IMG/VR virus record: IMGVR_UViG_3300025146_000015
Span: 1 to 60,672 of that record
Origin: a virus
Lineage: Duplodnaviria; Caudoviricetes
Strand: one strand, 5' to 3'
DNA length: 60,672 bases
Part shown: positions 1,505 through 59,556 of the stretch, piece after piece
Position numbering within the stretch: position 1 is the first letter of the stretch
How the letters are laid out: each line of letters begins with the position of its first letter
The notes under the pieces: generated by a model
What the model saw: the letters and a program-made list of their open reading frames with translations, nothing else
The model's database searches: none
What the model was told of the DNA's origin: nothing
Position numbers and translations under genes: made by a program

Positions 1505-1547
1505 CGCGGGCCTGTCCCGCGGGCAACCAAACCAAGGAGAAACGACC

Positions 1548-3074
1548 ATGGGCGTCGATGCGAGTGCTATTGCCCGCGTGCTGGGCATCACCACCGAATA
1601 CCAAGACACGCGAGGCGGATCGGTCAAGTACCTTCCGCAGAGGATCGCTGTCATTGCCCAGGGCGCGACCGCGTCTGCTGGGTACAGCCTCAACAAATGG
1701 ACCGCCACCTCGGCGAACGCCGGTGGCGCGCGGTACGGGTACGGCAGCCAGATCCACCTGATGTTGCGTGAGCTGTTGCCGGCGAACGGTGACGGAGTGG
1801 GCACCATTCCGATCGACGTTATTCCAATGAACGACGCTTCAGGCGGAGCGGCAGCGGTTGGCTCGGTGACCCCGAGCGGAACGGCGGCGGCAACCCAGAC
1901 CTACTACGCCCGCATCGGGGGAGTTCTCTCCGAGCCCTTCACGGTGGCAGCTGGCGCCGTGGTACCCGGTACCGTGGTGGACGCGATGGTTGTCGCAGTC
2001 GGCGGCGTCCCGCACATGCCGGTAACGGCAGCCGATGGTACGACAGATCTCGACCTCACATCGAAGTGGGAGGGCACATCGGCGAACGGGATCACGATTC
2101 AGATCCTGAACTCGGACGGTGAAGTGCTCACGTCGGGGACTGCGGACGCAAACGGCGTGATCTTCACCATCGTGGCGATGGCGAGCGGAGCGGCGAACCC
2201 GACGGTCGATACGCCTCTGACCAAGATCGGGAACGTTTGGAACACGATGCTGGTCAACGGTCTCGACCCCGAAGACGAGACCGCTATGACGGCATACGCC
2301 ACCTGGGGCGAGGGCCGCTGGGGCACGCTCTACCACAAGCCCGCTGTGGTGTTCACCGGGTGGACCGGCTTTGGCACACCGACGGTTGCCGAGGCAATCG
2401 CGATTTCGGAGACAAGGACGACCGACCGCGTGAACGCGCAAGTCGTGGCCCCTGGCTCGCCGAATATCCCGTGCGTAGTAGCAGCCCGACACGTGGCCAG
2501 GATCGCCAAGGTCGCGAACAACAATCCTCCGACGGACTACGGTGCCGAGCAAATCACCGGCATCGTCCCAGGCGACGACATCGACCAGTGGGACTACCCG
2601 AACCGCGACCTGGCACTCAAGGGCGGAAGCTCAACGGCCGAGGTCGTCGACAACATCCTGACGATCGGCGATACGGTCACCTTCTACGCACCGACCGGCG
2701 AAGAGCCCCCGGCGTATCGATACGTGGTCGACATCGTGCGGTTGCAGAACATCATCTACAACATCTCGTTGATCTTCGCGGCGAAGGAATGGGCCGGCGC
2801 GCCCCTGATTCCTGACCTACAGCCGACCGTGCGTCCGAATGCAAAGCGTCCGAAGGATGCAAAGGCGGTCGTTGCGGCGATGCTCGATTCGCTCGGGCTC
2901 GAAGCGATCATCAGCGATCCTGCGACTTCGAAGGCGCAGATCTACTGCGGCATCAACAGCCAGAACCCGAAGCGCCTCGACGTCGTGGTGCCAGTGACGC
3001 TCAGCGGAAACACGAACGTCAAGGACGTGACGCTGAGGTTCGGATTCTACTTCCCGGTGGCGCTGGCAGCCTGA
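1548..3074 (+). CDS. tail sheath protein (Mu gpL-like)
   Basis: AAGGAG RBS before ATG 1548; YLPQRIAVIAQG, YGYGSQIH and C-terminal NPKRLDV motifs; about 508 aa. Confidence 0.9.
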   Translation: MGVDASAIARVLGITTEYQDTRGGSVKYLPQRIAVIAQGATASAGYSLNKWTATSANAGGARYGYGSQIHLMLRELLPANGDGVGTIPIDVIPMNDASGGAAAVGSVTPSGTAAATQTYYARIGGVLSEPFTVAAGAVVPGTVVDAMVVAVGGVPHMPVTAADGTTDLDLTSKWEGTSANGITIQILNSDGEVLTSGTADANGVIFTIVAMASGAANPTVDTPLTKIGNVWNTMLVNGLDPEDETAMTAYATWGEGRWGTLYHKPAVVFTGWTGFGTPTVAEAIAISETRTTDRVNAQVVAPGSPNIPCVVAARHVARIAKVANNNPPTDYGAEQITGIVPGDDIDQWDYPNRDLALKGGSSTAEVVDNILTIGDTVTFYAPTGEEPPAYRYVVDIVRLQNIIYNISLIFAAKEWAGAPLIPDLQPTVRPNAKRPKDAKAVVAAMLDSLGLEAIISDPATSKAQIYCGINSQNPKRLDVVVPVTLSGNTNVKDVTLRFGFYFPVALAA

Positions 3075-4350: not shown

Positions 4351-6780
4351 GTGGCAGGAGGACGGTTTTCAGTAGACGCGGTCTTCAGGGCGGTGGATCG
4401 CTTCACGCAGCCATTGTCGAGGATGCGCCGCGGCGTGATTGGTCTGACCAGTAGCGCCAAGTTGGGCATGCGCGACGCTGACAAGGTCGCGTCTGGGTTT
4501 CTCAGAACTCTTGGCAGCATCGGAGCGAAGGCGGCAACTGCTGGCGCCGTCTTGGGGGCGGCGGGAGGCGCTGCCGCGTTTGCGATCGGGAAGGTCGGTG
4601 CCGACTTCGAGGAAGCTATCACGGCTGTCGGAGCGGTCTCACTGATGACGCGCGACCAGATCGCTGACCTCGAGAAGAAGGCTCTGCAGCTCGGATCGAC
4701 GACGAAGTTCACCGCAACCGAGGCGGCCAACGCGATGGAGCTCATGGGGCGCGCGGGCTTCACAAACGCCGAGATCATCAAAGGGATCGACGGTGTACTG
4801 AACGCGGCAGCGGCCGAGGGGGCAGGAATCGAGGAGGTAGCCGGCCACGTCTCGAACGTGCTCAAGGGCATGGGCCTGGCCGCGGATGAGGCAAACCGAG
4901 TCGCGGATGTCCTGACTCTAGCCTCCGCTCGAACCAACAGCTCGATCAGTAGCCTCGGCGAGTCGATGGCGAACGTCGCGTCAACAGCTAGGCAGCTGAA
5001 CGTCCCCCTGGAATCCGTCGTGGCAGCCGTCGCGGCTCTGCAGGACGTTGGTCTCGATGCGTCCGTCGCGGGTTCGGCGGTCAACACGATGCTGACGAAC
5101 ATCGCGAAGCCGACCGATGAAGTCGCGGCAAAGATGAAGAAGTGGGGGATCAGCTTCAAGGATGCCAAGGGAAACATGCTCCCGTTTTCCGAGGTCATCG
5201 GACAGATGTCCCAGGCTGCAAAGAAGTCGGGGGGCAACCTGGACCAGGTCGCGTTCTTCGCTGACCTCGTTGGACTGCGCGGCCAGAAGGCGGCCGCAAA
5301 TCTGAAGGACCTCTTCAACACTGGGAAGCTGCAAGCACTCACGAAGGAGCTCGACGGTGCGGCGGGTTCAGCGAAGAAGATGGCCGACCTTCGGATGCAA
5401 AACCTGAAGGGAGATCTGACGCTGCTCAAGTCGGCGACAGAGGGGCTCGAGGTCGCGTTGTTCAACACGGAGTCGGGACCGTTGCGTGGCGTTGTGCAGG
5501 GCATGACAAAATGGGTCACCGCGAACCAGCAACTGATCGTGTCCGGATTTCAGGAGTACCTAGGGAAGATCCGGGATGCGTTGCCGGACATCGTCAAATG
5601 GGGCAAGCGTGTTGCAATCATCGTCGGAATCTTCGCGTCGGTAGCGCTGGCGGTGAAAGCGGCGATGATCGTGGTCGCTGCGTTCAATGTCCTGGCTGCA
5701 ATGAACCCGTACGTCCTGATAGGTATGGCTATCGTAGCGGCCATTGCGCTCGTCGTGGCGTTCTGGCCCGAGATATCCGCGTTCTTCCTGAACCTCTGGA
5801 ACATCGCGAAGGAGACAGCGCAGAAGGTTGCCGACTGGTTCGTTGGGATTTGGAACAGCGTCGCTACCTGGTTCGGTGGCATCTGGGACAGCATCACCGC
5901 GTTCGCCGAACGGTCCGCAACCATCATGCGTCTCGGGTGGGCGACGGTCGTGACATTCTTCCAGGGAATCTGGGATGCGGTTGCCTCGGTCGTGAAAGGT
6001 GTCATCAAATTCATCGTCGGCCTGGTCGTTATTTGGTATGAGGAGCAGTGCCGCATCTTCGCTCCGGTGGTCGCGTTCTTCCAGGCAATCTGGGGCGGCG
6101 TGAAAGCCGCGTTCCTGTGGGCCTGGGGTCTGATCAGCGAGGCGGCCAGTGCCTACTTCGGAGTGCTGAGGGCGATCTGGACTCCGGTTCTCGGGGTGTT
6201 CGTCGCCATCTGGGATGCTGTCAAAGCGGCATTCGCTTGGGCGTTCGACGGGATCTCCGCATACGCGGCTGAGAAGCTGGAGACGGTCAAGTCTATCTGG
6301 GGCTCAGTCGTGGGAGTGTTCTCGACAATCTGGGGCAGCATCAAGCTCGCGTTCAGTGCTGTCTGGGATGCGATCGCCGATGATCTGCGGTCCAAGTACG
6401 ACCTATTCGTGTCCATCTTCTCCCCGATCGTCAGCTTCTTCTCCGGCCTGTGGCAGAGCGTCGCTGACACCTTCAACTCCGTGCTCGGTGGGCTGATGTC
6501 CCGCATCGAGCAGGTGATCGGGTTCGTGCAGGGCAAGGGTGGCACTGCCCTCGGGTGGGAGGGTGCAGGAACCGGGGACAGCCCCGGGGCGCCTCCGGGC
6601 TCGGGTCCGCAAATGGTCACCCCTCAGGATAGGACCGCGCGCACCATCAGCGAGAGCAACACGACGACGACAACCAAGGCCGAGGTCACGATCAAGGACG
6701 AAACAGGCAAGGCCAAGGTCACAAGGTCTCCGAAGGGCAGCGGAGTCGGGCTGCGCTTGGCCCATTCGGGGGCGTTCTGA
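4351..6780 (+). CDS. tape measure protein (TP901-family core)
   Basis: 809 aa; TTKFTATEAANAMELMGRAG core; Trp-periodic amphipathic repeats. Confidence 0.93.
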   Translation: MAGGRFSVDAVFRAVDRFTQPLSRMRRGVIGLTSSAKLGMRDADKVASGFLRTLGSIGAKAATAGAVLGAAGGAAAFAIGKVGADFEEAITAVGAVSLMTRDQIADLEKKALQLGSTTKFTATEAANAMELMGRAGFTNAEIIKGIDGVLNAAAAEGAGIEEVAGHVSNVLKGMGLAADEANRVADVLTLASARTNSSISSLGESMANVASTARQLNVPLESVVAAVAALQDVGLDASVAGSAVNTMLTNIAKPTDEVAAKMKKWGISFKDAKGNMLPFSEVIGQMSQAAKKSGGNLDQVAFFADLVGLRGQKAAANLKDLFNTGKLQALTKELDGAAGSAKKMADLRMQNLKGDLTLLKSATEGLEVALFNTESGPLRGVVQGMTKWVTANQQLIVSGFQEYLGKIRDALPDIVKWGKRVAIIVGIFASVALAVKAAMIVVAAFNVLAAMNPYVLIGMAIVAAIALVVAFWPEISAFFLNLWNIAKETAQKVADWFVGIWNSVATWFGGIWDSITAFAERSATIMRLGWATVVTFFQGIWDAVASVVKGVIKFIVGLVVIWYEEQCRIFAPVVAFFQAIWGGVKAAFLWAWGLISEAASAYFGVLRAIWTPVLGVFVAIWDAVKAAFAWAFDGISAYAAEKLETVKSIWGSVVGVFSTIWGSIKLAFSAVWDAIADDLRSKYDLFVSIFSPIVSFFSGLWQSVADTFNSVLGGLMSRIEQVIGFVQGKGGTALGWEGAGTGDSPGAPPGSGPQMVTPQDRTARTISESNTTTTTKAEVTIKDETGKAKVTRSPKGSGVGLRLAHSGAF

Positions 6781-8195
6781 TGGCGACGTGGGAAGACAGA
6801 ATTCGTGAGGCGGCATACACCTCTCCAAAAAGCGGGACAAGGATCGTCTTTGACTACGAGGACGTAAGTCGAATTGTCGAGCTCAGAACCGCAGCGTTTG
6901 GGTTCCCGGGAGTTGACGGCGAGTACGTCCAGCAGAACGGCTATGGCTCAAGACGATACCCGATGCGCTGCATCTTCTGGGGATCGTTGCACGACATATC
7001 AGCCACTGTTTTCAATGAGTTGCTGCTGGAGCCCGGCATCGGGAAGCTGGAACACCCAATGTATGGGACGTTCAACGTTGTCCCGTTCGGAGAGATCACA
7101 CGGCGCGACGACTTGAAGACAGGCGCAAACCAAACAATCATCGAAGTTACGTTTTGGACAACGATCCGCGAGCTCTTTCCGCTGGCCTTGCAGGATCCTG
7201 GGAGCGTGATTGCCGCGGCCCTGCAAGCATTCACTCTGGCGTCAGCCCAGCAGTTCGCAGACGCTACAGACCTATCGGACGCAATATCGAAGGCGGCTGG
7301 CAAGGGTCTGATCCGCGCTCTGCTGAACATCGTCAGCGACACCCTGCAGCAGGTGTCCGACCTCGTGTCTGGGGTCAATCGCGACTTCCGTGACCTGCAG
7401 AGCACCATCAACTACGGGATGGACGTCCTCATCGGGCAGCCACTGCAGCTAGCCCAGCAGATCGCAAACCTCATCACGGCCCCTGCCCGTGCAATCGACG
7501 GACTCAAGTCGAGGCTAGATGCGTACGGGGAGCTCTTCGACAGCATCTTCGAGTCGGAGGCAGGGAGGCCCGGCGATGCGCTGGACTCGGTTCCTACGGC
7601 AACGGCTGGCCGCATCGGTGTGACGCGGCGGACTCAGCTGATCGCCAACGGGTTCCACGCGGCCGACCTGTTCGCTGCGCACGCAATGGCAGGCAGCGTC
7701 ACGAGCACGCTGGACTCAACGTTTCAGGCGCAGCAGACGATCGCGCTTGAGGATGCTCCGAGCGGGTACAGGCAGCCAGCTGGGAAGGCTGGAGTCTTTC
7801 TGGCGAAGCCGGACGCAATCGTCGCGGCCGAGACGCTTCTCGCGCAGATGGACGCATACACGGCCTGGCGGGAAGCGGGGTTCGTCGCGCTCGGGGCCGT
7901 GCCGAAGACAGGAACCTACCAGCTGGACGCCGGAGCCTCCTATGCCGAGCTGCATCGGGCGGTCTCGATAGCGGCTGGAAACCTCATTCAGATCTCATTC
8001 AACCTCGTCCCCGAGCGGCGACTGGTGCTCGATCGGGAAAGGACGATCGTCGACCTCGCATCTGAGTTCTATGGGCACGTCGATCCGGTCGATGGCTTCG
8101 ATCCGCTCGACTACCTGATCGAGACGAACAACCTCACCGGCTCTCAGATCCTCGAACTGCAGCGTGGGCAAACGGTGAAGTACTACCATGCCTGA
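6780..8195 (+). CDS. Mu gp43-like DNA circularization/tail protein
   Basis: N-terminal WEDRIREAAYTSP and GKLEHPMYG motifs; follows the tape measure gene. Confidence 0.8.
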   Translation: MATWEDRIREAAYTSPKSGTRIVFDYEDVSRIVELRTAAFGFPGVDGEYVQQNGYGSRRYPMRCIFWGSLHDISATVFNELLLEPGIGKLEHPMYGTFNVVPFGEITRRDDLKTGANQTIIEVTFWTTIRELFPLALQDPGSVIAAALQAFTLASAQQFADATDLSDAISKAAGKGLIRALLNIVSDTLQQVSDLVSGVNRDFRDLQSTINYGMDVLIGQPLQLAQQIANLITAPARAIDGLKSRLDAYGELFDSIFESEAGRPGDALDSVPTATAGRIGVTRRTQLIANGFHAADLFAAHAMAGSVTSTLDSTFQAQQTIALEDAPSGYRQPAGKAGVFLAKPDAIVAAETLLAQMDAYTAWREAGFVALGAVPKTGTYQLDAGASYAELHRAVSIAAGNLIQISFNLVPERRLVLDRERTIVDLASEFYGHVDPVDGFDPLDYLIETNNLTGSQILELQRGQTVKYYHA

Positions 8196-9276
8196 GCGGG
8201 TCGAGGTGCGTATCAGCGAGAAAGCGTTCGCACATTGGTCGAGTCTCGAGATCAACCTAGGTCTGGACACGATCGACACCATTGCGCTCTCGGCCCCGTT
8301 TGAGGCAGAGCGACGCGAGTTCCGGGAGCTTTTCCGGCCATTTGGGTTCCAGCCGATCGATGTGACGCTCGACGGTGTGGCTCTCTTCACCGGGACACTG
8401 GTCGAGGTCACTCCGAACGTCACGGAGGAGTCAAGCACGGTGGACGTTGCAGGCTACGCCATCCCTGGTGTCCTCGGGGACTGCAGCCCGCCGGCCTCTG
8501 CGCTCCCGCTCGAGTGGCACGGGGTAGGGCTTCGTGAAATCTGTGAGCTATTGTGCGCACACTTCGGAGTCGACGTCGACTTCGGACTTAGAGACAATGC
8601 TCCATTCGGTAAGGTCGCCCTCGACCCATTGAGCGAGAAGAGGGCAAACGAGTGGGACAAGAAAGCGATTCATGAGCAGACGCTGCCGTGGGCCTTTCTG
8701 ACGAAGCTGGCCCAGCAACGGAACGCACTGCTGACGAGTTCAACGCGCGGCAAGCTGAAGGTGTGGCGTGCCGAGACGTCAGGAACGCCCGTGGCTCAGC
8801 TCGAGGGAGGCCTACCACCGCTCGTCAAGGTGACACCGAGCTTCAGCCCTCAAGACTACTACTCGGAGATTACTGGGTTCGCTCCGGCCAAGCGCGGCCG
8901 CAAGGGCACCAAGTGGACCGAGAACAACCCCAGGCTCGGGTCAAGCGTGCGACCGCATTGTTTCAGTTGCGACGACTCCGAGGACGCCGACGCACCGATG
9001 GCCACGGCCGCGAAGCTGTCAAGGATGTTCGGAAATTCAATCAGCTACATGATCGAAGGTCTTCCAACTTGGCGAACACCGCAGGGTGACATCTGGAGGC
9101 CGAACACCTTCATCCGGCTGAAGGCGCCGAACGCCATGGTCTACGACTGGACAGACCTGCTGATTCGAAACGTCAGGCTGAGCCAGACAGAAGAAATGGA
9201 AACCGCAGACCTGAACGTCTGCCTGCCCGGATCGTTTGGTGGCGAAGTGCCGAAGAGGTTTCCGTGGGAGCTCTAG
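8188..9276 (+). CDS. baseplate hub (Mu gp44-like)
   Basis: 362 aa; WRTPQGDIWRPN motif; synteny. Confidence 0.8.
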   Translation: MPERVEVRISEKAFAHWSSLEINLGLDTIDTIALSAPFEAERREFRELFRPFGFQPIDVTLDGVALFTGTLVEVTPNVTEESSTVDVAGYAIPGVLGDCSPPASALPLEWHGVGLREICELLCAHFGVDVDFGLRDNAPFGKVALDPLSEKRANEWDKKAIHEQTLPWAFLTKLAQQRNALLTSSTRGKLKVWRAETSGTPVAQLEGGLPPLVKVTPSFSPQDYYSEITGFAPAKRGRKGTKWTENNPRLGSSVRPHCFSCDDSEDADAPMATAAKLSRMFGNSISYMIEGLPTWRTPQGDIWRPNTFIRLKAPNAMVYDWTDLLIRNVRLSQTEEMETADLNVCLPGSFGGEVPKRFPWEL

Positions 9277-11624: not shown

Positions 11625-12815
11625 ATGGCGTTCCCCGTCCAGACAACCCAGCAGGTGAGCGACACGATCGTCGCGCAACTCGCGGCAAGTCTGTCGCAGA
11701 CGATCCCGTTGCTACCGAAGTCGTTCACGCGCGTCCTCGCGAAGTCGATGGCGGGTGTTTACGTCATGCTGTGGAGGTACGCGGGGTTCATTTTCCTGCA
11801 GATGTTCGTTCGGTACGCGACAGACGAACCAACTAAGATCGGCACGCTCATCATCAGACCACTTACCGAATGGGGACGGATCTCCGGGGTCGGAGAGCGT
11901 GGCCAGGGTGAGAGAGCGGAGTTGACGGTCGCTGTCACGGTGATGAACCAGACAGGGACGATGGCGGCTGGAAAGCAGCTGCTACGTGCCGCAACCGGAG
12001 TGATCTACCTCACACTGGAGGATGTCCTCCTGGATGCTCCGATCGTCAACGTCACGGTCCGGGCGGTTTCCGACCAGGATGGGAACTCGGGAGTCGGTGC
12101 GCTAGGGAACCTAGAGGCTGGCGATGTCGTAACGTTCCTGTCGCCAGTGCCGAACGTGGCGCGCGATGCGTCCGTCGTATCGCTAGACGTCACGGGGGCC
12201 GATGAGGAGACGGTCGACTCCTACAGACTTCGAATCATCCGCCGCTTTCAGACTCCGCCCCAGGGCGGAGCGTATGCTGACTACCAGCAATGGGGCGAGG
12301 GAGTCGCGGGGATCCTGCACGTGTACCCGTACACGGGCGATCCGGGCGAGATGGACATCTACGTCGAGGCTACAGTCGCAAGCTGCGGGGACCCGGACGG
12401 GATCCCTCTTCCGGCGCAGCTCGTCGCTGTCGAGGCAGCAATCACCTACGACGACGCGGGACTGGCCTCGAGGCGCCCCGCAGGAGTCGAGCTGATCAAC
12501 ACCTACGCGATCACCCGGACCGCGTACGACGTCGAGGTGACGGGGCTCGATCCCGACACGCCAGCGCTGCGCACCGGCATTCAGTCGGCGCTTGAAGAGT
12601 ACTTCCTGGACCGCGAACCGTTCATCCTCGGGCTCTCGCCATTGCCACGCAAAGAGCGCGTCACCGCAGGAGACATCTACGCGACCACGGCCGGCGTAGT
12701 GGCCGCACATGGGTCGTCGATAGGCGACGTCACGAGCCCGACGCTCGGCGGATTGGTCGTGGACATTCTTGGGCACGGGGAAAAGGCGAAGCTGGGAACT
12801 CTCACGTTCTCCTGA
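11625..12815 (+). CDS. baseplate J-like protein (Mu gp47-like)
   Basis: GADEETVDSYRLRI and PQGGAYADYQQW motifs. Confidence 0.9.
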   Translation: MAFPVQTTQQVSDTIVAQLAASLSQTIPLLPKSFTRVLAKSMAGVYVMLWRYAGFIFLQMFVRYATDEPTKIGTLIIRPLTEWGRISGVGERGQGERAELTVAVTVMNQTGTMAAGKQLLRAATGVIYLTLEDVLLDAPIVNVTVRAVSDQDGNSGVGALGNLEAGDVVTFLSPVPNVARDASVVSLDVTGADEETVDSYRLRIIRRFQTPPQGGAYADYQQWGEGVAGILHVYPYTGDPGEMDIYVEATVASCGDPDGIPLPAQLVAVEAAITYDDAGLASRRPAGVELINTYAITRTAYDVEVTGLDPDTPALRTGIQSALEEYFLDREPFILGLSPLPRKERVTAGDIYATTAGVVAAHGSSIGDVTSPTLGGLVVDILGHGEKAKLGTLTFS

Positions 12816-12821
12816 GGCATC

Positions 12822-13988
12822 ATGGCAATAGAGCTCTCCACTGAGTACCCGACGCAGGTGGACACGGACGCCGCGTACCCCTACGGGAAGCCGCGTAACC
12901 GCTCAACGCCGACCACCCAGGACGGAACTCCGTTCGAGGAGAAATGGGTGCAGGACCTGCACGGGTTCTTGCAGGCTATCCTGGTGACGGCAGGTACCAC
13001 ACCGAGTGGTACGCCGGACAGTGCGACAGTCAGCCAGCTGCTCGACTCAATGCGTGTAATTGCCCGCACGATTCTGTCGGGTCAGATCCTGAACATCAAT
13101 AGCGGCGGCTACCACTTCGTCTATGGAACGCTGGAGGTCAAAGGGGGTGGGGTGGCGAGGCTGCAAGCGACGTCCGAAATGGAAGTCGAGTCCGGCTCCG
13201 AGGTGAACGTGGAGTCCGGTGGAGAAATCAACGTCGAGTCCGGTGGCAACATCAATGTCAACTCCGGGGGCGACATCGAGATCGAGGACGGCGGAGAGAT
13301 CAACGTCCAGAACGGTGGAGAAATCAACCTCGCTGCTGGAGCCATCGTTGATGCAGTGAGCGGGGCGAATATCCACATTCGTACCGGTGCTCAGATCCAT
13401 GCCTACGCCGGATCGGAGGTCCAGATTGACGGGGTGCTTCAGGCCATCAGCGGGGCGGAGGTCAGGGTAGCGGACGGCGCGACCCTAACGATCGATGGTG
13501 GAGGCAACTGGCCCATCCTCTCCTCGCGTGGAGAATGGCTGCCGTGCAGGGGACACTTCTCATTCTCGACGCCAGCGCAATGGACCGATGCAGACGGAGC
13601 TGGTTTTTCATGCGCGCTCAACACTGCGTGTAAAATGTACTGTCGCGTGGGAGTGCCCGATCACTTCACGATCACCGAGGTGAATGTCAGGTGGAACGGG
13701 CCAACACATCCCACCTGGCCACCACAGAACCTCACAACATTTTCAGCCTACTGGGTGGATTCGACAGCTGGAGGCAAGACGCTACTCGTTGAGACTCCTG
13801 ACACCAGTGCGCAGGTGACGTACGAGGCTTTCCATGTGTTGAAACTCGAGGGGTTCTCGCAAGTTGGCTCGCCAGCGGGTTACCTACTCATCGAGATGCT
13901 GACCGAGAGCGGGACGAATGCGGTGCTCGGATCCATGTGGGTGTCGTGCGAGATGCTCGCGACCATGACTGAGCTTCGCAACGGGTAG
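12822..13988 (+). CDS. tail fibre protein
   Basis: N-terminal anchor (YPYGKPRN...DGTPFEEKWVQDLHGFLQA...SQLLD); central 8-residue GGEINVES repeats. Confidence 0.75.
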   Translation: MAIELSTEYPTQVDTDAAYPYGKPRNRSTPTTQDGTPFEEKWVQDLHGFLQAILVTAGTTPSGTPDSATVSQLLDSMRVIARTILSGQILNINSGGYHFVYGTLEVKGGGVARLQATSEMEVESGSEVNVESGGEINVESGGNINVNSGGDIEIEDGGEINVQNGGEINLAAGAIVDAVSGANIHIRTGAQIHAYAGSEVQIDGVLQAISGAEVRVADGATLTIDGGGNWPILSSRGEWLPCRGHFSFSTPAQWTDADGAGFSCALNTACKMYCRVGVPDHFTITEVNVRWNGPTHPTWPPQNLTTFSAYWVDSTAGGKTLLVETPDTSAQVTYEAFHVLKLEGFSQVGSPAGYLLIEMLTESGTNAVLGSMWVSCEMLATMTELRNG

Positions 13989-13994
13989 CTGCAG

Positions 13995-15896
13995 ATGGCG
14001 TGTCTAGTCGGCGAAGTCACACTCGATAGGAGCTCGGATCAATACCGAGGCTCGGGACTCGCGTGGACGATCTTCCACCAAATCAGCTACTTCTGGAACG
14101 GCGATCGCGTCGCGCTCCGCGAGAAGTCTCCGGAGTTAGCCGCTCAGGCGAAGGGGCTGGCGACCGTACTCTGCGCGATGTTCGACGATGCCGAGGCAGC
14201 GTGGCAGCTCCCGATCGGAACGATCATCATTCTGGGCGTGGCAGATGACCCGGCTACGCTCTACGGCTACGGCACATGGGAAAAGGTAGCGACAGGTCGG
14301 GTGCTGGTCGGTCAGGACATCACCGACCCAGACTGGGATGTGCTCGGAGAGACGGGCGGGTCGAAGACGCACACGCACTACGTGGAGGCCCACGATCATG
14401 GGATGGCCCACACCCACGGCATCACCGCGCACGCTCACCCGATCGGCACGCACGTGCACTCGGTGGGTGGCCACATACATTGGTTTGGGCACAGCCATGC
14501 GTGTCCAGAACATCAGCACTATGGTCCAAGTCACGATCACACGTTGAGTGCGCACACGCACCTTGGCGCAAGCCACGCTCACACCCTCAGCGCGCACACG
14601 CACCTTGGCGCAAGCCACGCTCACACCCTCAGCGCGCACACGCATACGGGCGGCTCGCACACGCATTCGCTAGGCGCGCATACGCATGATGGCAGTTCGC
14701 ACACGCACGGCCTGAACGACCATACGCACAACGGACCGAGCCACGCGCACACGATAACGCACACGCACGCGGGTCCGAGTCATGACCACACGATAACGCA
14801 CACGCATGCGGGTCCGAGTCATGACCACACGCTAGGCAGTCACACGCACACGGGACCGTTGCATGCGCACAGCATGTCCCACAACCATGGAGAATCAGAC
14901 CACACACACGCGGGGCCGAGCCACGATCATTTGATGCCCCACACGCACCTGGGAGCGAGTCACGCGCACACGTTGAGTGCGCACACGCACACTGGTGGAC
15001 TGCACTCGCATACGCTGACTACGGCAGCCGTTGCCAGCGGGTCAGGGGCGGTGGGCTTGGGTTCGTCCACCACGGGGGCTGGCGGCGCGGTAGATTCTGG
15101 CGCGCCGAGCAACGACACGACGGGTAACGGTGGATACCTGGCGACAGGCTCTCCGAGCATTGCCCAAACAAGCCTCGGTGGGGCGAGCGCTACGAGCGGG
15201 CAGCTCGAAGGAGCTACCTACACGAGCCAGCCGCTACCCACCAACGTAACAACTGGTGACTCCGGTAGCGGTAACACAGGGAGCGCATCCGGAAACACTG
15301 GCTCAGGCGGCACGGGGAACACCGGCGCGTCCAGCGCGGCAAGTACCGGTCTAGGCGGTACCGGCAGCACCGGAGCGTCCAGCGCAGCAGACACCGGGAA
15401 TGCCGGAAATGGAGCGACAAGCGGACCCAGCGTGGCGAGCACTACCGCCGGAGGGACTGGAGCGACCGGTGCACCGAGCTTTGATCTGACGGGCGGCGGC
15501 GGAACAGTTCCGTCTAGCACGCCGGACTCTGACACGACAGGCAACGGCGGTGTGCTGGCGTCACAGGGACCCAGTACGGACACGACTGGCAACGGTGGCT
15601 ACCTGGCGACCGCAGCCCCAGACGTGGACCACACCGGGCTTGGTGGAGCCGATCCAACGAGCGAGCCCACAGTGAGCCCGCTCTATACGAGCGTGCCCAT
15701 AGACACACAATACACTGGCGCGAACGATGCGTTCAACACGAGCGCGGCGGCGTCTGGAAGCACCGGCAATAGCACCGAGATCGCGAGCGGCGCGTCGTCG
15801 GAGGCATCAACCGCCGAGGGCGGCGGAGAGAACACCGACGAGGCATCGAACGTGATGCCGTTCTACACGGTCGTGTTCTGGAAGCGGGTGGCATGA
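13995..15896 (+). CDS. gp10-C-type baseplate/fibre protein with a very long HxH needle
   Basis: PIGTII...GYGTWEKVATGRVLVG...TGGSKT and C-terminal NVMPFYTVVFWKRVA enclose 32 HxH motifs and a G/S/T-rich segment. Confidence 0.8.
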   Translation: MACLVGEVTLDRSSDQYRGSGLAWTIFHQISYFWNGDRVALREKSPELAAQAKGLATVLCAMFDDAEAAWQLPIGTIIILGVADDPATLYGYGTWEKVATGRVLVGQDITDPDWDVLGETGGSKTHTHYVEAHDHGMAHTHGITAHAHPIGTHVHSVGGHIHWFGHSHACPEHQHYGPSHDHTLSAHTHLGASHAHTLSAHTHLGASHAHTLSAHTHTGGSHTHSLGAHTHDGSSHTHGLNDHTHNGPSHAHTITHTHAGPSHDHTITHTHAGPSHDHTLGSHTHTGPLHAHSMSHNHGESDHTHAGPSHDHLMPHTHLGASHAHTLSAHTHTGGLHSHTLTTAAVASGSGAVGLGSSTTGAGGAVDSGAPSNDTTGNGGYLATGSPSIAQTSLGGASATSGQLEGATYTSQPLPTNVTTGDSGSGNTGSASGNTGSGGTGNTGASSAASTGLGGTGSTGASSAADTGNAGNGATSGPSVASTTAGGTGATGAPSFDLTGGGGTVPSSTPDSDTTGNGGVLASQGPSTDTTGNGGYLATAAPDVDHTGLGGADPTSEPTVSPLYTSVPIDTQYTGANDAFNTSAAASGSTGNSTEIASGASSEASTAEGGGENTDEASNVMPFYTVVFWKRVA

Positions 15897-49647: not shown

Positions 49648-50129
49648 GCCCCCGGCAGAAGCCCCACCGAAGCAACCAGGCGTACTGCACGCCAGAGGAC
49701 TTCCTGCACGCCATCCGGGCAACCTTCGGCATCATCGCGATCGACCTAGCAGCGTCGGGCCCGAACGTCTGCGATCGCTGGCTAGGCCCTGGCTCTGCGC
49801 TGGCCGAGGACGCATTGTCCGTCGACTGGTTCCCTCACGTGCCGATGGGAGGAAAACACCTGGGTTGGGTGAACCCTCCCTTTGGTGACATCGCGCCATG
49901 GGCTAGGAAGTGCGTGGCAGAGGGTGAGCGTTGCAAGATCGTGATGCTCACGCCGTCGAGCCTTGGCGCAAACTGGTACTGCGACATCGTGCAGGGGCAC
50001 GCCCTAACGCTGATCGTGAGGCCGCGGCTGACGTTCGTTGGGGAGTCGGCTCCGTACCCGAAGGACCTTGCGATCCACGTGTTCGGCGCCGGAATGGTCG
50101 GGCTCGGGACGTGGAGGTGGAGACAGTGA
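49644..50129 (+). CDS. phage DNA N6-adenine methyltransferase
   Basis: YCTPEDF, IDLAAS, WVNPPF and RLTF motifs. Confidence 0.85.
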   Translation: MSPRQKPHRSNQAYCTPEDFLHAIRATFGIIAIDLAASGPNVCDRWLGPGSALAEDALSVDWFPHVPMGGKHLGWVNPPFGDIAPWARKCVAEGERCKIVMLTPSSLGANWYCDIVQGHALTLIVRPRLTFVGESAPYPKDLAIHVFGAGMVGLGTWRWRQ

Positions 50130-51058
50130 GCGCCTCCAGTTCCGTGATCCAATTGGTACGCGCCCACTACGGCGGCGACGAGCGGCAGTTCGCGAGCTCG
50201 GCCCTCTCTCTCGCCGCGGGCTCGAAGGTCTGGAGCGTGCGGCGCAACATCGAGGATGCGGTGCGTGCCGGGGTCCAGCGGTCAGTCAACAAGCCTCGTC
50301 AGCTCCAGGAGCTGCGCCCGGTGAAGCTGCTCGCTGGGGGCATGCTCGAGGAGCTCGAGCCTGTGACGCTGGCGGAGCTGCAGCTACCGGAGTCCTTGGC
50401 TACCAGCATCGAAGCCATCACGACCGAGCTCGAGTACCGCGAGGAGCTCGGGGAACGGGGACTCAGGCCTCGGAATCGCATTCTGCTTTGGGGGCCCCCC
50501 GGATGCGGCAAGACCTCAGTCGCCCGTGCCATCGGCTCCGCTCTGGACGTCCCGGCTTACGGCGTGAGCTTGCCGAGGGTCATCGACAAGTACATCGGCG
50601 CGACTGGGCAGAACCTCGGCGAGCTCTTCGCCCACATTCAGGACAACACGCTGGTAGTGCTCGACGAGATCGACGCGCTCGGGGCCACTCGTGGGGGCGT
50701 CGAGCAGTCGGCGGGCAAGGAATTCAACGGAATCGTCAACACGATGCTGACCCTGCTCGACCGGTGCCACCGAGGCATCATCGTCGCGACGACGAATCGA
50801 CCCGATATTGTCGACCCGGCGTTGCTTCGTCGCTTCGACGAACAGTTTGAAGTGCCAGAGCCAACCACCGAGCAGATGACGGCGCTAGCCGCGCGACTCT
50901 GCGACGGATTCAAGATTCCAGCGGTTCCCGTTGATGGGTGCCGCAACTACGACGAAGTCACCAAGCAAGTGCAGCGCGAGGCCCGCCGGATCGTCATGGC
51001 GGAGATCTTGGCTGCCGAGGAGCTGAGCGAAGATGGCGAAGAAAAAGCCGCAGAATGA
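50126..51058 (+). CDS. AAA+ ATPase
   Basis: GPPGCGKT (Walker A), VLDEID (Walker B), TTNRPDIVDPALLRRFD. Confidence 0.9.
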   Translation: MSASSSVIQLVRAHYGGDERQFASSALSLAAGSKVWSVRRNIEDAVRAGVQRSVNKPRQLQELRPVKLLAGGMLEELEPVTLAELQLPESLATSIEAITTELEYREELGERGLRPRNRILLWGPPGCGKTSVARAIGSALDVPAYGVSLPRVIDKYIGATGQNLGELFAHIQDNTLVVLDEIDALGATRGGVEQSAGKEFNGIVNTMLTLLDRCHRGIIVATTNRPDIVDPALLRRFDEQFEVPEPTTEQMTALAARLCDGFKIPAVPVDGCRNYDEVTKQVQREARRIVMAEILAAEELSEDGEEKAAE

Positions 51059-51789: not shown

Positions 51790-51978
51790 AGCCGACAACG
51801 CTTGGCAGGGTCTCCCGCGGGTGAACATGGATCCACCCGGACGCCTCAGGGCCAGAAACACACGAAGCCAGAGCGTCACACCGGTTCAGTCGTGCCGGGC
51901 CGACTTGGAGCTGGGTCGCGCCGAGTTGGGTGTCGGCGGTGCCCACTGGTCGGATCCGGACGAAGACGGTGGTGGAGG

Positions 51979-52914
51979 ATGATCACGATCAAAGAGGAGT
52001 TCATCCGCTGCGACAAGCTTCGTCGAGCGGTCAAGCTTGGTGGTCCAGCCGTGGGGTTGGTCTGGTTGGCCCTGAAGACCTACGTGTCCGAACACCTGAC
52101 CGACGGATTCGTTCCTGTAGACGATGTAGACGGTCTTGTAGACGGTCTTGTAGACGCAAGGTGTAGACGCCGATGCATCGACGCTCTGGTCTCATGTGGT
52201 CGTCTGCTTGCCGACGGTGGGCGCGGATCTGGTCTCGTGGACCGCGTCGAGCATGGCCTACGGCTCCATGATTACCTCGAACATGCAGACGATGCTGAGT
52301 ACGAGCTGAACAGAAGAAGACTCCGATCAGAGCGCCAGAAGAAGTGGCGCAGGGCCAAACAGCAAAGAGAGATTGATGCGTCAAACAAGCTTGGCCAACA
52401 ACCAAATGTAGACGATGTAGACGCGTCTACAGTAGACGATGTAGACGCGTCTCCCTCGTGCGCGCGTACGGGGGCGCCCGCGTCCCCAGCCCAGCCCAGC
52501 CCAGCCCAGCCCAGCCAAACCGAGTTAGATCTAGATCAGGATCCCCCCTATGGTCCCCCAGTGGGGGACGCTCCAGCCAAGGTCCGGCCACGGAAGAGCC
52601 CGAGGTCCAAACTCCCCGAGGGGTGGCAACCGAACGAGGGACACCGATCGCTAGCCACCGAAGTTGGTGTCGAGCTAGCGGCCGAGGTTCCCAAGTTCGT
52701 GGATCATGCGGCAGCCACCGACCGACGGATGGCTGATTGGGATGCTGCGTTTCGGACATGGCTCCGCAACGCGAAGGATTTTCACCGAGGTGGGTTGCTA
52801 CCCTCTGGGGCGAGGGATTCGAGGGCGGACGCGCAGATGCGACGACAGCTCGCGCACATCGAAGACTTGAGACGACAGGAGGCAAGAGAACGTGACCAAG
52901 CTGCAAGCAAGTGA
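51979..52914 (+). CDS. replication initiator protein
   Basis: TDGFVP, LHDYLE and C-terminal LPEGWQPN...FVDH...DWDAAFRTW; internal iterons. Confidence 0.75.
   Translation: MITIKEEFIRCDKLRRAVKLGGPAVGLVWLALKTYVSEHLTDGFVPVDDVDGLVDGLVDARCRRRCIDALVSCGRLLADGGRGSGLVDRVEHGLRLHDYLEHADDAEYELNRRRLRSERQKKWRRAKQQREIDASNKLGQQPNVDDVDASTVDDVDASPSCARTGAPASPAQPSPAQPSQTELDLDQDPPYGPPVGDAPAKVRPRKSPRSKLPEGWQPNEGHRSLATEVGVELAAEVPKFVDHAAATDRRMADWDAAFRTWLRNAKDFHRGGLLPSGARDSRADAQMRRQLAHIEDLRRQEARERDQAASK
52116..52452. repeat. (T)GTAGACG iterons, putative replication origin
   Basis: Five copies at 52116-52169; four direct and one inverted copy at 52407-52447. Confidence 0.75.
52485..52516 (+). repeat. (CCCAG)6 microsatellite encoding a PAQPS linker
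   Basis: Directly visible in the sequence. Confidence 0.85.
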
Positions 52915-53997: not shown

Positions 53998-54551
53998 AGC
54001 GCTACGAACCGACACTCCAGTGGAGGCAAGGCCATGGCCAGATGACAGACTTCTGCAAACCCACCGTGATGCTGGTCGAGAGTGAGACCGGCAGCGTCGT
54101 GAGGTGGGAGGAGGCTGCAGAGCACGCGAAGGACATCCCAATTCTCCAGCGGACAGTTCGCCGTCTCGATGACGAGATCGATAGGCTCCGTGGTGAGCTT
54201 CTGAGCGCTGAGTCCGAGCTCTGCATGCGGGTGGCCCGACCCCGAGCCATCGAAGGCGATGACGTGGGGGGCGGCGCTCGATGCAATGCGCGCAGGCAAG
54301 AGCGTGGCCTGGTACCACTGGCACGGTACCAGCGTCAGCCTGTGCCATGACGGCGTCATCCGCTTCGATGGTCCAGTGGATCAGCGTCGTCCATTCGAGT
54401 TCCGTCTCGAATACGCCGAGAAGGCACATTGGCGCGTGGTCGAACCGGCATGCGCGGAGGTAGTTCCGGACCGTCACGAGACGGCCAATTACGCAGCGTT
54501 GATGGCGTCACTTGGAGACGAGGAATACTGAAGCGAAAGGAAACGAACCAC

Positions 54552-55058
54552 ATGGCGGCTGAACAACGAGCAGGAATCAACCTGCAGGAACTCGCGACTC
54601 GCCTCAAGAACGCTGTCACGACAGGAGCAACGGCTCCGCTCGTCGTTGCGGGAGACGTCGCTCGGCTTGCCGAGAACTGGGCGGCGTATCGAGAGGAGGC
54701 CGGAGGGGTAGCTTGCACGACGTGGATCCAGGGCGTGTGTGGAGGGGGCCGAAACCTCGCCTGGTGGATGAGCCGACACGAGGCCGTTGAGAAGTTAGGG
54801 GAGTCAACGCGCCGCACTACCGATCACCATGTCGCCGTCTGGTTGGCGAACAAGATCCCCGAGACGGAGCACGACCGCGTTGCCCTCATCATGAGGCGCG
54901 AACAGAAGCAAAACCACGGCGTGCCGATCAGCATGCCGATGGCGAAACGTGTGCTGCGTGCCGAGGGCCTGATCGACGGCTCACAGAGCAAAAAGTGTCG
55001 GCGTTGCGAGCAACTTGAGCAACTGCTCGAGGATCATGACATCGCAGTGCCGGAGTGA
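54552..55058 (+). CDS. hypothetical protein upstream of the TIGR-like array
   Basis: AAGGA RBS; 168 aa; C-terminal CRRC; stop codon lies within the first array repeat. Confidence 0.7.
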   Translation: MAAEQRAGINLQELATRLKNAVTTGATAPLVVAGDVARLAENWAAYREEAGGVACTTWIQGVCGGGRNLAWWMSRHEAVEKLGESTRRTTDHHVAVWLANKIPETEHDRVALIMRREQKQNHGVPISMPMAKRVLRAEGLIDGSQSKKCRRCEQLEQLLEDHDIAVPE

Positions 55059-55350
55059 GAGCTGGGCAACGAAAAGCGAGAAGAACAACGAGCGGGCTAG
55101 GGTCAACGAAGTGATGACGCGTCAGCGAGCGAGCGCAATCCAACGAAAGCGGGCACGACGAAACGAGGGGCCGCCAGCGAGCGACAAGCGTCCAGCGAAG
55201 CGAGCGAATGCCACTGAGCGACCGAGGCTCAACGAAGCGAACCACCGGCAACGAGCGAGGGTCCAACAACGAAGTGACAGCTGTCGAGCGAGCGCAACGA
55301 AAAGCGGAAAGAAGAATAGACAACGAAGCGATCCGGAGCGACTGAAAGGA
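55053..55350 (+). ncRNA. TIGR-like dual-repeat array
   Basis: Alternating AACGAA(A)nGYGA and ANYGAGCGA repeats separated by mostly 9-nt variable spacers; unit about 37 nt. Confidence 0.8.
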
Positions 55351-55359
55351 ACCTCATCA

Positions 55360-56406
55360 ATGAAACGACAGACGAGCACTGAAAGCACCACGACACTGAA
55401 AAAGGTCGAACGCAAACTGAAGGGCAAGCGGGTCGCCGTGCCCGTGTACGACGACCCAAGGACAGAGCTCCGGCGCCTCGTCAAGGTTCACAAGTCTTTG
55501 ACGAAGGCGTCGGTCGCGCTGCACCACATGGCCAGTGACCGACAGCGCCCACCGAACCTACCGAACGACATGGACACGGTCCGCTCTGAGGCTGCGTCGA
55601 GAGGGTCGATGGCAGACACGAAGTCGATTGACGCCGTGCTTGCGGGGACCGCCACAGCGGCGCAGAAGGTGCGCGCCGAATACCTGCAGAAGAACGTCGT
55701 CTGTCTGCTCCCGAAGGATGACCAAGAGGATCTGCTATCAGCGTCAAAGAGGCGCAGCGCCTCAGCTGCAAAGCTCGAGTCAGCGATGGTGAAGGAGCTC
55801 CGGAAGCTGGACGTCTACAAGCTCTTCATGGTCAACGTCTTCGGGCTCGGCCCCGTGGTATCCGGATACCTGGGTGCCATGGTCGACATTCAGAAGGCGG
55901 AGAAGCCGAGCCAGCTGATCCGGTATTGCGGGTATGCCTGCATCGACGGCAAGGCCGAGCGGCGCCGGGAAGGGTTCGCGCCACGCACAGGGATCACTGG
56001 CAACGCCGAGGCGAAGGGCACGTTCAACCTCGAACTGAAGACCCGCATTTGGCAGGCCATGGCAGCAATGTGGAAGAACGGGGCGAAGTCGAACTGCACG
56101 ACCAAGTACCTCACGCGGTGGCGGCAGGAGAAAGATCGGCGGCTCCTCCAGGGACAGACGAAGGGCAAGGCACACGATGCGGGCCGACGTGCAGCGACGG
56201 ACCTCCTGCTGTACGACCTGTACCTGGTCTGGCGCGCCATCGAGGGCCTGCCGTCATGGGTGACGTGGTACGACTGGACGAGGGGCTACGAGCACGGACG
56301 CGGCCCCCTGCCCCGAGAGAACGCGCCAAGAATGCTGACGGTCGACGAGGCACTGGCCATCGTCGGCAACGTCGGGAAGGACATCGTCGCAATTGCGGCG
56401 GAGTGA
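55360..56406 (+). CDS. tasA: IS110-related Nop-domain RNA-binding protein lacking a nuclease domain (TasA-like)
   Basis: GLGPVVSGYL...KPSQLIRYCGY...FNLELKT...AHDAGRR...LYLVWRAIEGLP; no N-terminal DEDD/RuvC; arrays on both sides. Confidence 0.75.
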   Translation: MKRQTSTESTTTLKKVERKLKGKRVAVPVYDDPRTELRRLVKVHKSLTKASVALHHMASDRQRPPNLPNDMDTVRSEAASRGSMADTKSIDAVLAGTATAAQKVRAEYLQKNVVCLLPKDDQEDLLSASKRRSASAAKLESAMVKELRKLDVYKLFMVNVFGLGPVVSGYLGAMVDIQKAEKPSQLIRYCGYACIDGKAERRREGFAPRTGITGNAEAKGTFNLELKTRIWQAMAAMWKNGAKSNCTTKYLTRWRQEKDRRLLQGQTKGKAHDAGRRAATDLLLYDLYLVWRAIEGLPSWVTWYDWTRGYEHGRGPLPRENAPRMLTVDEALAIVGNVGKDIVAIAAE

Positions 56407-56530
56407 GTGAGGTTCAACGAAGCGAACCATGCTATTGAGCGAACGATGAATCAACGAAGCGAAGGCCCGACATCGAGCGAAACACGGCCAACGAAGCAAA
56501 TGACATCCAACGAAAAGCGAGACCAAATGA
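56401..56530 (+). ncRNA. second TIGR-like array
   Basis: Same repeats with seven 8-10 nt spacers (gtgaggttc, accatgct, acgatgaatc, aggcccgac, aacacggcc, atgacatcc, gaccaaatg). Confidence 0.75.
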
Positions 56531-56683: not shown

Positions 56684-56950
56684 ATGGCTAAGAAGATAGG
56701 ATTAGGCGACAAGGTCAAGGATCGAATCACGGGCTTCGACGGCATCGTGGTGTGCCGAGCCGAGTGGCTGAACGGCTGCGTGCGATTCACGGTGCAGCCG
56801 ACCAAGCTCAAGGACGGCAGGGCGATCGACACGGATTGCTTCGATGAGAATCAACTCGTGTTGCTGAAAGCAGGGGCCTACCAAGACTCCGCCGCGCCTA
56901 GCGGAGGGCCACGGCCTAAACAGCGCATGCCACCGAATCCGAGCAGGTGA
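56684..56950 (+). CDS. conserved small SH3-like phage protein
   Basis: LGDKVKDRITGFDGIVVCRAEWLNGC. Confidence 0.7.
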   Translation: MAKKIGLGDKVKDRITGFDGIVVCRAEWLNGCVRFTVQPTKLKDGRAIDTDCFDENQLVLLKAGAYQDSAAPSGGPRPKQRMPPNPSR

Positions 56951-57041
56951 GCCCCAAAGAAAAACCCCGGCGAGTCTTTTGGGTGAGAGTCGCCGGGGGG
57001 CTTAGAGAGATCGAGCGGCTAGCCTGGAGAAAGGCTACCGC

Positions 57042-58863: not shown

Positions 58864-59556
58864 ATGTTCGTCATCGACGACCGCCAGATTCGCCACCTGG
58901 CAGCCCGCCTGAAGGACTCACCCAAGGCCGTCGGCTACGCGGCTCGCAACACACTCAACCGCCAGGCTTTCGACGCTCGGAAGGCGTGGCAGGGCGAGAT
59001 GCGGTCGACGTTCACGCTGCGCAACACTTGGACGATGGGCAGCATCCGGGTCGAAAAGGCGAGCGGCTACTCGCTCCAGACCATGCAGTCCCGGGTGGGC
59101 AGCGGCCTCAACTACCTCGAGACTCAGGAGGAGGGCGGGGCGAAGCCGGGCGGCGGCGCCTACGGGCAGCCCATCCCGACCAGCGTCGCATCCGGTGAGG
59201 GCCGAGGCGCGAGGCCCCGCAAGCGGACGGTACGGGCTAGGTATAAGCTCGGTGCCATCACGCTGCAGCAACGCCCGGGCGGGAGCCGCAAGCAGCGCAA
59301 CGCGGCAGCCATCCAGCAGGCGCGGCGCAAGGGCACCAAGTACGCGTTCCTCGAGCTCGGAAAGGGCACTGGAATCGCGCAGATCCCGAAGGGTAAGCGG
59401 GGTAAGATCCAGCTGATCTGGAGCCTGGCGCATTCCGGCGTGAAGGTGCCCCCGCACCCGACTCTCGGACCGGCAGTTGCGAAGGTCCAGAGGCGCTTCC
59501 CACGATACGCGGCGGCCGAGCTCCTCCGACAACTCAAGCGGGCAAAGCTCGCGTAG
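58864..59556 (+). CDS. basic minor tail/neck-like protein
   Basis: AARNTLNRQAFDARK...FTLRNTWT; 230 aa, very basic. Confidence 0.6.
   Translation: MFVIDDRQIRHLAARLKDSPKAVGYAARNTLNRQAFDARKAWQGEMRSTFTLRNTWTMGSIRVEKASGYSLQTMQSRVGSGLNYLETQEEGGAKPGGGAYGQPIPTSVASGEGRGARPRKRTVRARYKLGAITLQQRPGGSRKQRNAAAIQQARRKGTKYAFLELGKGTGIAQIPKGKRGKIQLIWSLAHSGVKVPPHPTLGPAVAKVQRRFPRYAAAELLRQLKRAKLA

Follow-up and report, generated by a model that had tools for sequence, protein, structure and literature searches.

A probable dual-repeat TIGR-TasA system in a metagenomic phage with a contractile tail

Introduction

The dual-repeat TIGR-TasA systems described by Faure et al. (2025; PMC12045711), among them that of FpTasA from Flavonifractor plautii, combine a solo Tas protein that has a Nop domain and no nuclease with arrays of two alternating short repeats. 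According to that description, the arrays carry spacers of 9 nucleotides (nt) and lie on both sides of the gene, the two repeat types (edge and loop) have common end motifs, and phages are among the carriers. Here we describe a locus that resembles these systems in each of these features and that resides in the virus record IMGVR_UViG_3300025146_000015 of IMG/VR. The whole record, a linear sequence of 60,672 nt with a CheckV completeness of 84%, was analysed and is referred to below as the window.

Reports on TasA proteins give some indication of what such a locus might do. FpTasA is reported to bind 36 nt RNAs, and a second protein, MbTasA, is reported in a 2026 preprint to repress reporter and chromosomal genes and to bind target DNA in electrophoretic mobility shift assays. 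The original prediction for the present locus, made from the sequence of the window alone, held that a TIGR-Tas-like module was present, that it was probably aimed at competing elements and that its purine-rich repeats might constitute a distinct subtype. It also proposed a comparison of protein structures and a search for paired spacer targets, and named an intact transposase catalytic domain as one finding that would speak against it. We find that the locus, as judged by its sequence and by a structural model of its protein, fits the published definition of dual-repeat TIGR-TasA, and we assign a probability of about 0.85 to the reading that it is such a system of a metagenomic contractile-tailed phage.

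Results

Architecture of the dual-repeat arrays

Two arrays with a period of 37 nt are located on either side of a gene for a protein of 348 amino acids (aa), which we call tasA for reasons given below (Table 1). Each array unit is composed of an edge repeat (10 nt), spacer A (9 nt), a loop repeat (9 nt) and spacer B (9 nt), which fits the definition of dual-repeat arrays by two alternating repeats of 8-12 nt and spacers of about 9 nt. The canonical edge repeat is AACGAAGCGA and the canonical loop repeat is A(A/G)CGAGCGA. Dual-repeat arrays are further defined by box C-like and box D-like end motifs that edge and loop repeats have in common. Here both begin with A(A/G)CGA and end with GCGA, and they differ by a single extra A, which lies between the common 5′ part (AACGA) and the common 3′ part (GCGA). 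For TasR arrays, repeats of the form UG...CCA have been described, whereas those examined here are GA-rich and take the form AACGA...GCGA. The repeat strings quoted in the original prediction were found at the positions given there.

A loop-like repeat and a single spacer lead into the upstream array, which is intergenic and continues with units U1 to U7. Its regularity is interrupted by a 15 nt break (55142-55156) and by an irregular stretch of 26 nt (55296-55321), in which a 12 nt variant (AACGAAAAGCGG) that starts at 55296 is followed by 14 nt of A-rich filler (55308-55321); in addition, U6 is truncated. The loop position of U7 is occupied by ACTGAAAGG (55341-55349), and the edge-like AATGAAACGA (55359-55368) closes the array. 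The downstream array has GCGGAGTGA as its loop-like lead-in at 56398, followed by two units and part of a third, and closes with the 12 nt variant AACGAAAAGCGA (56509-56520), which also opens the upstream array at 55068 (repeat family D4). Our parse yields about 14 spacers upstream and six or seven downstream, all different, in good agreement with the 15 or so and seven that had been predicted. Successive edge motifs are 37 nt apart in six of eight cases; the other distances are 52 and 54 nt, at the two irregular stretches, and 1094 nt, across the gene.

This pattern is far from what chance would produce. The strict edge motif A[AG]CGAAG[CT]GA occurs seven times on the + strand of the window, each time within the arrays, and not once on the − strand, and 18 of the 33 + strand matches to a looser repeat pattern fall in the approximately 490 nt of array. 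Self-similarity at a lag of 37 nt is 0.456 for the upstream array, a value reached by none of 2000 shuffled sequences, and 0.419 for the downstream array, reached by seven of 2000. For the coding sequence that intervenes it is only 0.264, which 1401 of 2000 shuffles attained. Tandem Repeats Finder reported nothing in the window sequence, as expected because half of each array unit is variable.

The protein encoded between the arrays

The core G(L/I)GP...LxxYxG that had been predicted for the 348 aa protein (P0001) is present, residues 162-165 being GLGP and residues 186-192 LIRYCGY. Sequence comparisons place P0001 with the Tas proteins. In a phmmer search of the Protein Data Bank (PDB), residues 137-209 matched TaTasR (9mty, 1.6e-8), and among NCBIfam models NF052498 (TIGR_Tas_endo, 'TIGR-Tas system RNA-guided endonuclease') was matched at 2.9e-15 with 56.8 bits. 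NF052498 is an equivalog model for endonucleases that spans 215 positions and has a curated cut-off of 100 bits. An exhaustive HMMER search with P0001 recovered 470 representative clusters at E values of 1e-3 or less, 76 of them at 1e-30 or less, and the best was 49% identical. When 60 members of these 470 clusters were combined into a family profile and compared with the PDB, TaTasR was matched at 2e-39, SpTasH at 1.1e-29 and IS621 at 2e-3. A tblastn search of GenBank phages with TasA at a threshold of 1e-5 gave no match.

The AlphaFold2 (AF2) model of P0001 has a mean predicted local distance difference test score (pLDDT) of 89.2 and a predicted template modelling score of 0.85. When this model was compared with the PDB by Foldseek, TasR and TasH structures took all of the first ten places (6.8e-7 to 9.6e-6), followed by IS110-family recombinases at about 1e-2 and then by Prp31 and Nop5 at 0.2-1. 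With VIA-align, the TasR and TasH structures gave Z scores between 17.3 and 19.4, including 19.4 for TasH (root-mean-square deviation 2.5 Å over 220 residues) and 17.6 for TasR (2.7 Å over 197 residues), compared with 13.0-13.4 for ISCro4 and IS621 of the IS110 family and about 8 for the best helical matches outside both families. The comparison of folds proposed in the original prediction thus came out in its favour.

P0001 resembles TaTasR and SpTasH (9mty; 9w03, 9vzx and others) in its coiled-coil and Nop fold, in the GxGP motif and in having a C-terminal loop, where conserved aromatic and histidine residues are candidate counterparts. Unlike P0001, both relatives are DNA-cutting enzymes with a nuclease domain (RuvC or HNH) at the N-terminus. 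The structural alignments begin at residue 29-33 of the model, which corresponds to residue 63-66 of TasH (31 aligned with 65) and to residue 112 of TasR (33 aligned with 112). As these starting points lie past the HNH and RuvC domains of the two relatives, P0001 has neither a nuclease domain nor room for one: only about 30 residues precede its coiled coil, and AF2 predicts residues 1-30 to be a short, partly disordered segment. Moreover, no Pfam model matched P0001, hence not PF01548 either, and the claims that the protein lacks RuvC and HNH and has no intact transposase catalytic domain are borne out to this extent. Judged by sequence and modelled fold, P0001 is a Tas-family Nop-domain protein, and because of the missing nuclease domain we identify it as TasA.

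Two further regions of the protein deserve mention. The coiled-coil region contains some 50 additional aa (residues ~61-111, window positions 55540-55690), an insertion that is missing from all 11 aligned relatives and from the closest locus (L002) and is modelled by AF2 as three short helices with pLDDT values of 75-86. In addition, the C-terminal loop WYDWTRGYEHG (303-313) was aligned with the processing loop of SpTasH, where Y289 and H296 are reported to be the catalytic residues of pre-tigRNA maturation (PMC13421893). In the profile alignment the TasH segment YVQEKLGH stands opposite the family segment yyaaklGy, which is followed by eH; the corresponding residues of P0001 are W303-Y304...G309-Y310-E311-H312. 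SpTasH Y289 and H296 align with W303-Y304 and Y310, respectively, and H312, located two residues further on, is invariant in an alignment of 12 members and conserved to 90% or more in that of 60 members. The loop and candidate Tyr and His residues are therefore present in the sequence of P0001.

Conservation of the module in related loci

We compared the locus with 12 related loci, of which 10 are viral and two come from metagenome-assembled genomes, on contigs that carry the labels Polyangiaceae and Thermoleophilia. Dual-repeat arrays adjoin the gene in all 12, on the tasA strand. The closest, L002 (65% identity in the best segment), has the same two repeats as the window and entirely different spacers. 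Other relatives use the repeat pairs ATGACAACGA/AGCGAGCGA, GAACGAATGACA/GAGCGAGCCA, CAGTGAAAACGA/CAGCGAGCGA and GAACGAAGTGA/GAGTGGACGA, with periods of 37-38 nt. Edge and loop repeats of any one locus have common 5′ and 3′ ends, which vary between loci (for example, ...ACA/...CCA in G003, G006 and G008). Faure et al. (PMC12045711) describe the same covariation of edge and loop ends and attribute it to the symmetry of the dimer to which the repeats bind.

The occurrence of GA-rich repeats across the clade indicates that they are typical of it and not peculiar to this phage. The suggestion of the original prediction that the purine-rich repeats might constitute a distinct subtype is partly supported by this clade-wide pattern. 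Among the related phage loci, TasA identity to P0001 ranges from 31 to 65%, and the retention of the module at this divergence, with quite different spacers, argues for selection.

The arrays of two related records (G006/L007 and G003/L004) show recurrence of spacers with different partners, for example one spacer A that appears twice in neighbouring units, which may bear on the way the arrays grow. G006 and G008 have an identical downstream array.

A conserved gene upstream of tasA

Immediately upstream of the first array is a gene for a 168 aa protein, here called the partner (Table 1). Homologues with identities of 24-63% are located directly upstream of tasA in all six related loci for which 3 kb of upstream flank were available. 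Searches of Pfam, PHROG, NCBIfam and PDB sequences with the partner gave no match, and a word-based search found only six other proteins, all unnamed. The AF2 model is all-helical (pLDDT 87.4). Its top Foldseek match is the DNA-binding domain of ParB (6s6h_B), which is weak at an E value of 1.1, and long VIA-align alignments were obtained with Spo0J (Z 6.4, 107 residues), ParB (Z 5.8), SopB (Z 5.2) and KorB (Z 5.0), values that are in the noise range of this tool for helical proteins. The nearest Atlas structural cluster, in which 66% of members carry HTH_ParB, has a template modelling (TM) score of 0.50, again in the range common for helical proteins. These models make it possible that the partner is a ParB-type helix-turn-helix domain; since it is all-helical, the N-terminal ParB/Srx CTPase fold would be missing.

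The arrangement recalls the tasParB-tasA operons of Faure et al., which are described as having a small conserved gene just upstream of tasA in an operon-like organization, with dual-repeat arrays between the genes and downstream and with repeats of about 10 nt. It differs in that no ParB domain is detectable in the partner sequence and the resemblance of its model to a ParB helix-turn-helix is weak. We consider that the partner probably cooperates with the TIGR-TasA system.

Gene boundaries within repeat-like elements

Three consecutive open reading frames (ORFs) of the + strand end in a TGA that is part of a repeat-like element. The stop codon of ORF 54259..54531 (TGA at 54529-54531) is contained in the isolated edge-like repeat ACTGAAGCGA, that of the partner gene lies within the loop-like CCGGAGTGA at 55050, and that of tasA overlaps GCGGAGTGA, the lead-in of the downstream array. 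Likewise, the ribosome-binding site of tasA lies within the loop position of U7 (ACTGAAAGG), and its ATG within the closing edge-like repeat (AATGAAACGA). In L012, the start of tasA (ATGAAACGA) is also an edge-like repeat. Nine of 12 aligned TasA proteins (A2; L002, L004, L007-L013 set) end in AAE, which is encoded as GAG TGA in some loci and as GAA TAG or GAA TGA in others. As the codons differ, the tail, which overlaps the first repeat, seems to be conserved as protein sequence as well. The partner homologue of L008 also ends in AAE.

By the placement of the stop codons and of the tasA start in repeat-like units, as well as by the 37 nt unit and by an edge and loop that are one A apart, the locus differs from the dual-repeat TIGR-TasA systems that have been described. 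Published accounts of TIGR-Tas place the processing cut for tigRNA in the middle of the edge repeat. A cut of this kind in the last upstream unit would sever the tasA message at its start codon, and by analogy we offer as a testable idea that array processing exerts negative feedback on tasA.

Searches for spacer targets

The 3′ overhangs that have been reported in the literature imply that the complementary segment of each strand lies in its 3′ half. A target read along one strand should accordingly consist of spacer A and then spacer B in reverse complement. This geometry is our own deduction and not a statement of the source paper.

Each complete spacer pair was compared, in both arrangements, with the window after masking of the arrays. 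The best candidate, for U4 at 14045 in a tail-fibre gene, matched at 16 of 18 positions (spacer B 9/9, spacer A 7/9), with one of its two mismatches at the central position, which we infer to lie in the seed. Among 300 trials with shuffled spacers, 37 gave a match with no more than two mismatches, and the candidate was rejected as a chance match. We then compared 82 spacer pairs from eight of 13 related records (nine were parsed and G008 was dropped as a duplicate of G006) with all 13 records, allowing gaps of 0-2. This set contained one 18 nt match with a single mismatch (U5 in G009) and no perfect match in the inferred arrangement; a control arrangement gave a perfect 16-mer match, and the result is at chance level.

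An exact-pattern scan of IMG/VR covered four of the seven complete pairs with two 9 nt spacers (U2, U4, U5 and D2). Matches were obtained for U5 in 14 contigs, which represent two sequence families, for U2 in three, for U4 in five and for D2 in two, and the control arrangement of U5 gave eight. No matched contig was related to this phage by tblastx. The proposal that the system is aimed at competing elements therefore gained no support: the matches from the search for spacer A next to the reverse complement of spacer B are at chance level, both in the 13 related records and in IMG/VR.

Genomic context

PHROG matches to tail genes identify the record as a metagenomic phage with a contractile tail (Table 1). 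Its GC content is 63.3%. The TIGR locus is flanked by a replication module and, on its other side, by tail genes. One public DNA sequencing run, labelled as soil metagenome, contains fragments identical to the locus and probably represents the sample from which the record was obtained. A tRNA search of the window found none, and an Rfam search returned nothing relevant.

Table 1. Features of the window, listed from the TIGR locus outwards
Feature	Position	Strand	Remarks
tasA (P0001), 348 aa	55360..56406	+	Coiled-coil dimerisation region and Nop domain
Upstream (intergenic) dual-repeat array	55050..55369	+	Parsed into units
Upstream units U1-U7	Starts 55068, 55105, 55157, 55194, 55231, 55268, 55322	+	U6 (55268) truncated
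Downstream array	56398..56520	+	Parsed into units
Downstream units D1, D2, D3	Starts 56416, 56453, 56490	+	D3 is a part unit
Partner gene, 168 aa	54552..55058	+	All-helical; CxxC near C-terminus
Isolated edge-like repeat ACTGAAGCGA	54527..54536	+	Also found with the looser pattern; partner gene begins 15 nt further on
88 aa gene, unknown function	56684..56950	+	PHROG 16275 (unknown function), 1.7e-15; after the downstream array
Minor tail protein	58864..59556		Downstream of the TIGR locus
Replication-initiation protein	51802..52914		Near the TIGR locus
AAA ATPase	49931..51058		Near the TIGR locus
Tail sheath	1461..3074		PHROG match
Tape measure	4351..6780		PHROG match
Baseplate proteins	6780..9276 and 11625..12815		PHROG match
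Tail fibres	12822..15896		PHROG match

The 88 aa gene that follows the downstream array may belong to the same transcription unit as tasA; we treat it only as genomic context. On its 3′ side, inspection by eye revealed a GC-rich inverted repeat, CCCCGGCGA...TCGCCGGGG (56961-57001), that could mark the end of the transcription unit and that was not listed by the terminator scan because it has no run of T residues. ORF 54259..54531, directly upstream of the module, encodes 90 aa beginning MTWGAALDAMRAGKSVAW and gives a sub-threshold Pfam match (13.7 bits, where the cut-off is 25; E 0.095) to a Tad2-like (Thoeris anti-defence 2) domain, and it may be a phage anti-defence gene.

Two observations were made at a greater distance from the locus. 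The − strand at 28234-29433 carries a gene resembling phosphoadenosine phosphosulfate reductase (PHROG 2302, 7.5e-83). Within tail-fibre ORF 13995..15896, 7-mers repeat 35-40 nt apart at 14601-14800; this is probably a coding repeat that is unconnected with the TIGR arrays.

Discussion

Homology to TasR and TasH by sequence and fold, together with the dual-repeat arrays, upholds the central claim of the original prediction. The anatomy of the arrays, the family and fold of the protein, the missing nuclease domain and the conservation of gene plus arrays are established here, and the mechanism that we propose is drawn from characterised relatives. Both arrays would be transcribed on the tasA strand, and transcription would probably include tasA and the partner gene. 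A TasA dimer would recognize the common 5′ [A(A/G)CGA] and 3′ (GCGA) ends of edge and loop repeats, and cleavage of the precursor inside the edge repeats would release tigRNAs of about 37 nt, each with two 9 nt spacers. Such a tigRNA would direct TasA to an 18 bp DNA site, where spacers A and B would pair with opposite strands. As TasA has no nuclease domain, the expected outcome would be binding of the DNA, with a block of transcription or replication, rather than cleavage. A repressor function of this TasA is suggested by analogy with MbTasA, which is a different TasA.

Several observations weigh against this assignment. The array unit is 37 nt, and the dual-repeat systems are described as having a fixed unit of 36 nt. 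The score of P0001 with NF052498 is under the curated cut-off and the match covers only profile positions 41-215; a score of this size is what would be expected of a homologue that is not an equivalog of the endonucleases, and it is consistent with TasA. The equivalence of the Tyr and His residues of the processing loop with those of SpTasH is shifted by one or two residues in the alignment. Given the break, the truncated unit and several degenerate repeats, some units of the upstream array may be non-functional. We detected no sigma-70-like promoter and no + strand terminator near the arrays, and for the public sequencing runs that contain the locus no RNA run is listed. Finally, no natural target of any spacer pair stood out above controls in the window, in the 13 related records or, for the four pairs scanned, in IMG/VR; the authors of the TIGR-Tas work report the same difficulty in finding targets.

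Other explanations of the locus were weighed against these data. Centromeres of ParB systems are often tandem repeats, and the repeats might accordingly act as DNA, serving as iteron- or centromere-like sites for a ParB-like partner in phage partition or silencing, with the Tas-like protein an accessory or unrelated. The likeness of the partner model to Spo0J, SopB, KorB and the HTH_ParB cluster would suit this explanation, but every one of these matches is of a strength common among helical proteins. Furthermore, the repeats are direct and non-palindromic, alternate exactly as TIGR edge and loop repeats do, enclose unique 9 nt spacers and always lie on the tasA strand, and homologous proteins are reported to bind the transcripts of such arrays. 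We therefore regard a purely DNA-based role as very unlikely. Slightly less probable again is a longer TasA whose additional N-terminal part would be encoded by the upstream array. Such a protein would be 463 aa long, read from a TTG at 55015, and the array would be partly intragenic. The ORF at 55015..56406 indeed has no stop in the tasA frame, and Xu et al. report arrays inside tas coding sequences, less often in the case of dual-repeat arrays. However, the N-termini of homologues align at the ATG at 55360, just upstream of which is GAAAGGAA, and the period of 37 nt is not a multiple of three. The array contains only 6.6% T, so that open frames are expected from its composition alone.

The lowest probability among these alternatives is given to decay, in which case the locus would be what is left of an IS110-family element, or of an inactive TIGR locus, and would have no present function. 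P0001 matches PHROG 4285, annotated as 'transposase' (2.5e-9), Pfam finds Transposase_20 in 29 of the 60 family members and a DEDD domain in one, and the upstream array is interrupted and includes degenerate units. P0001 itself, however, has neither of these Pfam domains. The bridge-RNA recombinases of the IS110 family, such as IS621 and ISCro4, share an RNA-binding Nop-like domain with P0001. Unlike them, P0001 has no DEDD/RuvC domain, and it is accompanied by arrays in place of a single bridge RNA. Its reading frame is intact, its fold is confidently predicted and its family is large, and the architecture of the module has been kept among phages whose TasA proteins and spacers have diverged widely, which speaks for selection. 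A dual-repeat TIGR-TasA system thus accounts best for the locus.

A more elaborate form of this reading is doubtful and is put forward with corresponding reserve. It would make the locus a two-protein, RNA-programmed system in which tigRNA-guided TasA nucleates the ParB-like partner on chosen DNA, for silencing, partition or exclusion, and which also regulates itself by cutting its own mRNA at the start codon and by separating the messages of the operon.

The locus leaves the known mechanism of TIGR-Tas unchanged. The first descriptions of TIGR-Tas systems date from 2025, and TasA, which lacks a nuclease, is their commonest form. The clade described here offers a practical place to ask what TasA does in a phage, whether it cooperates with a partner and whether processing feeds back on tasA translation, because it provides a locus whose neighbours are known, in a phage genome of 84% completeness, as well as a close relative that has identical repeats but different spacers, and a conserved partner gene.

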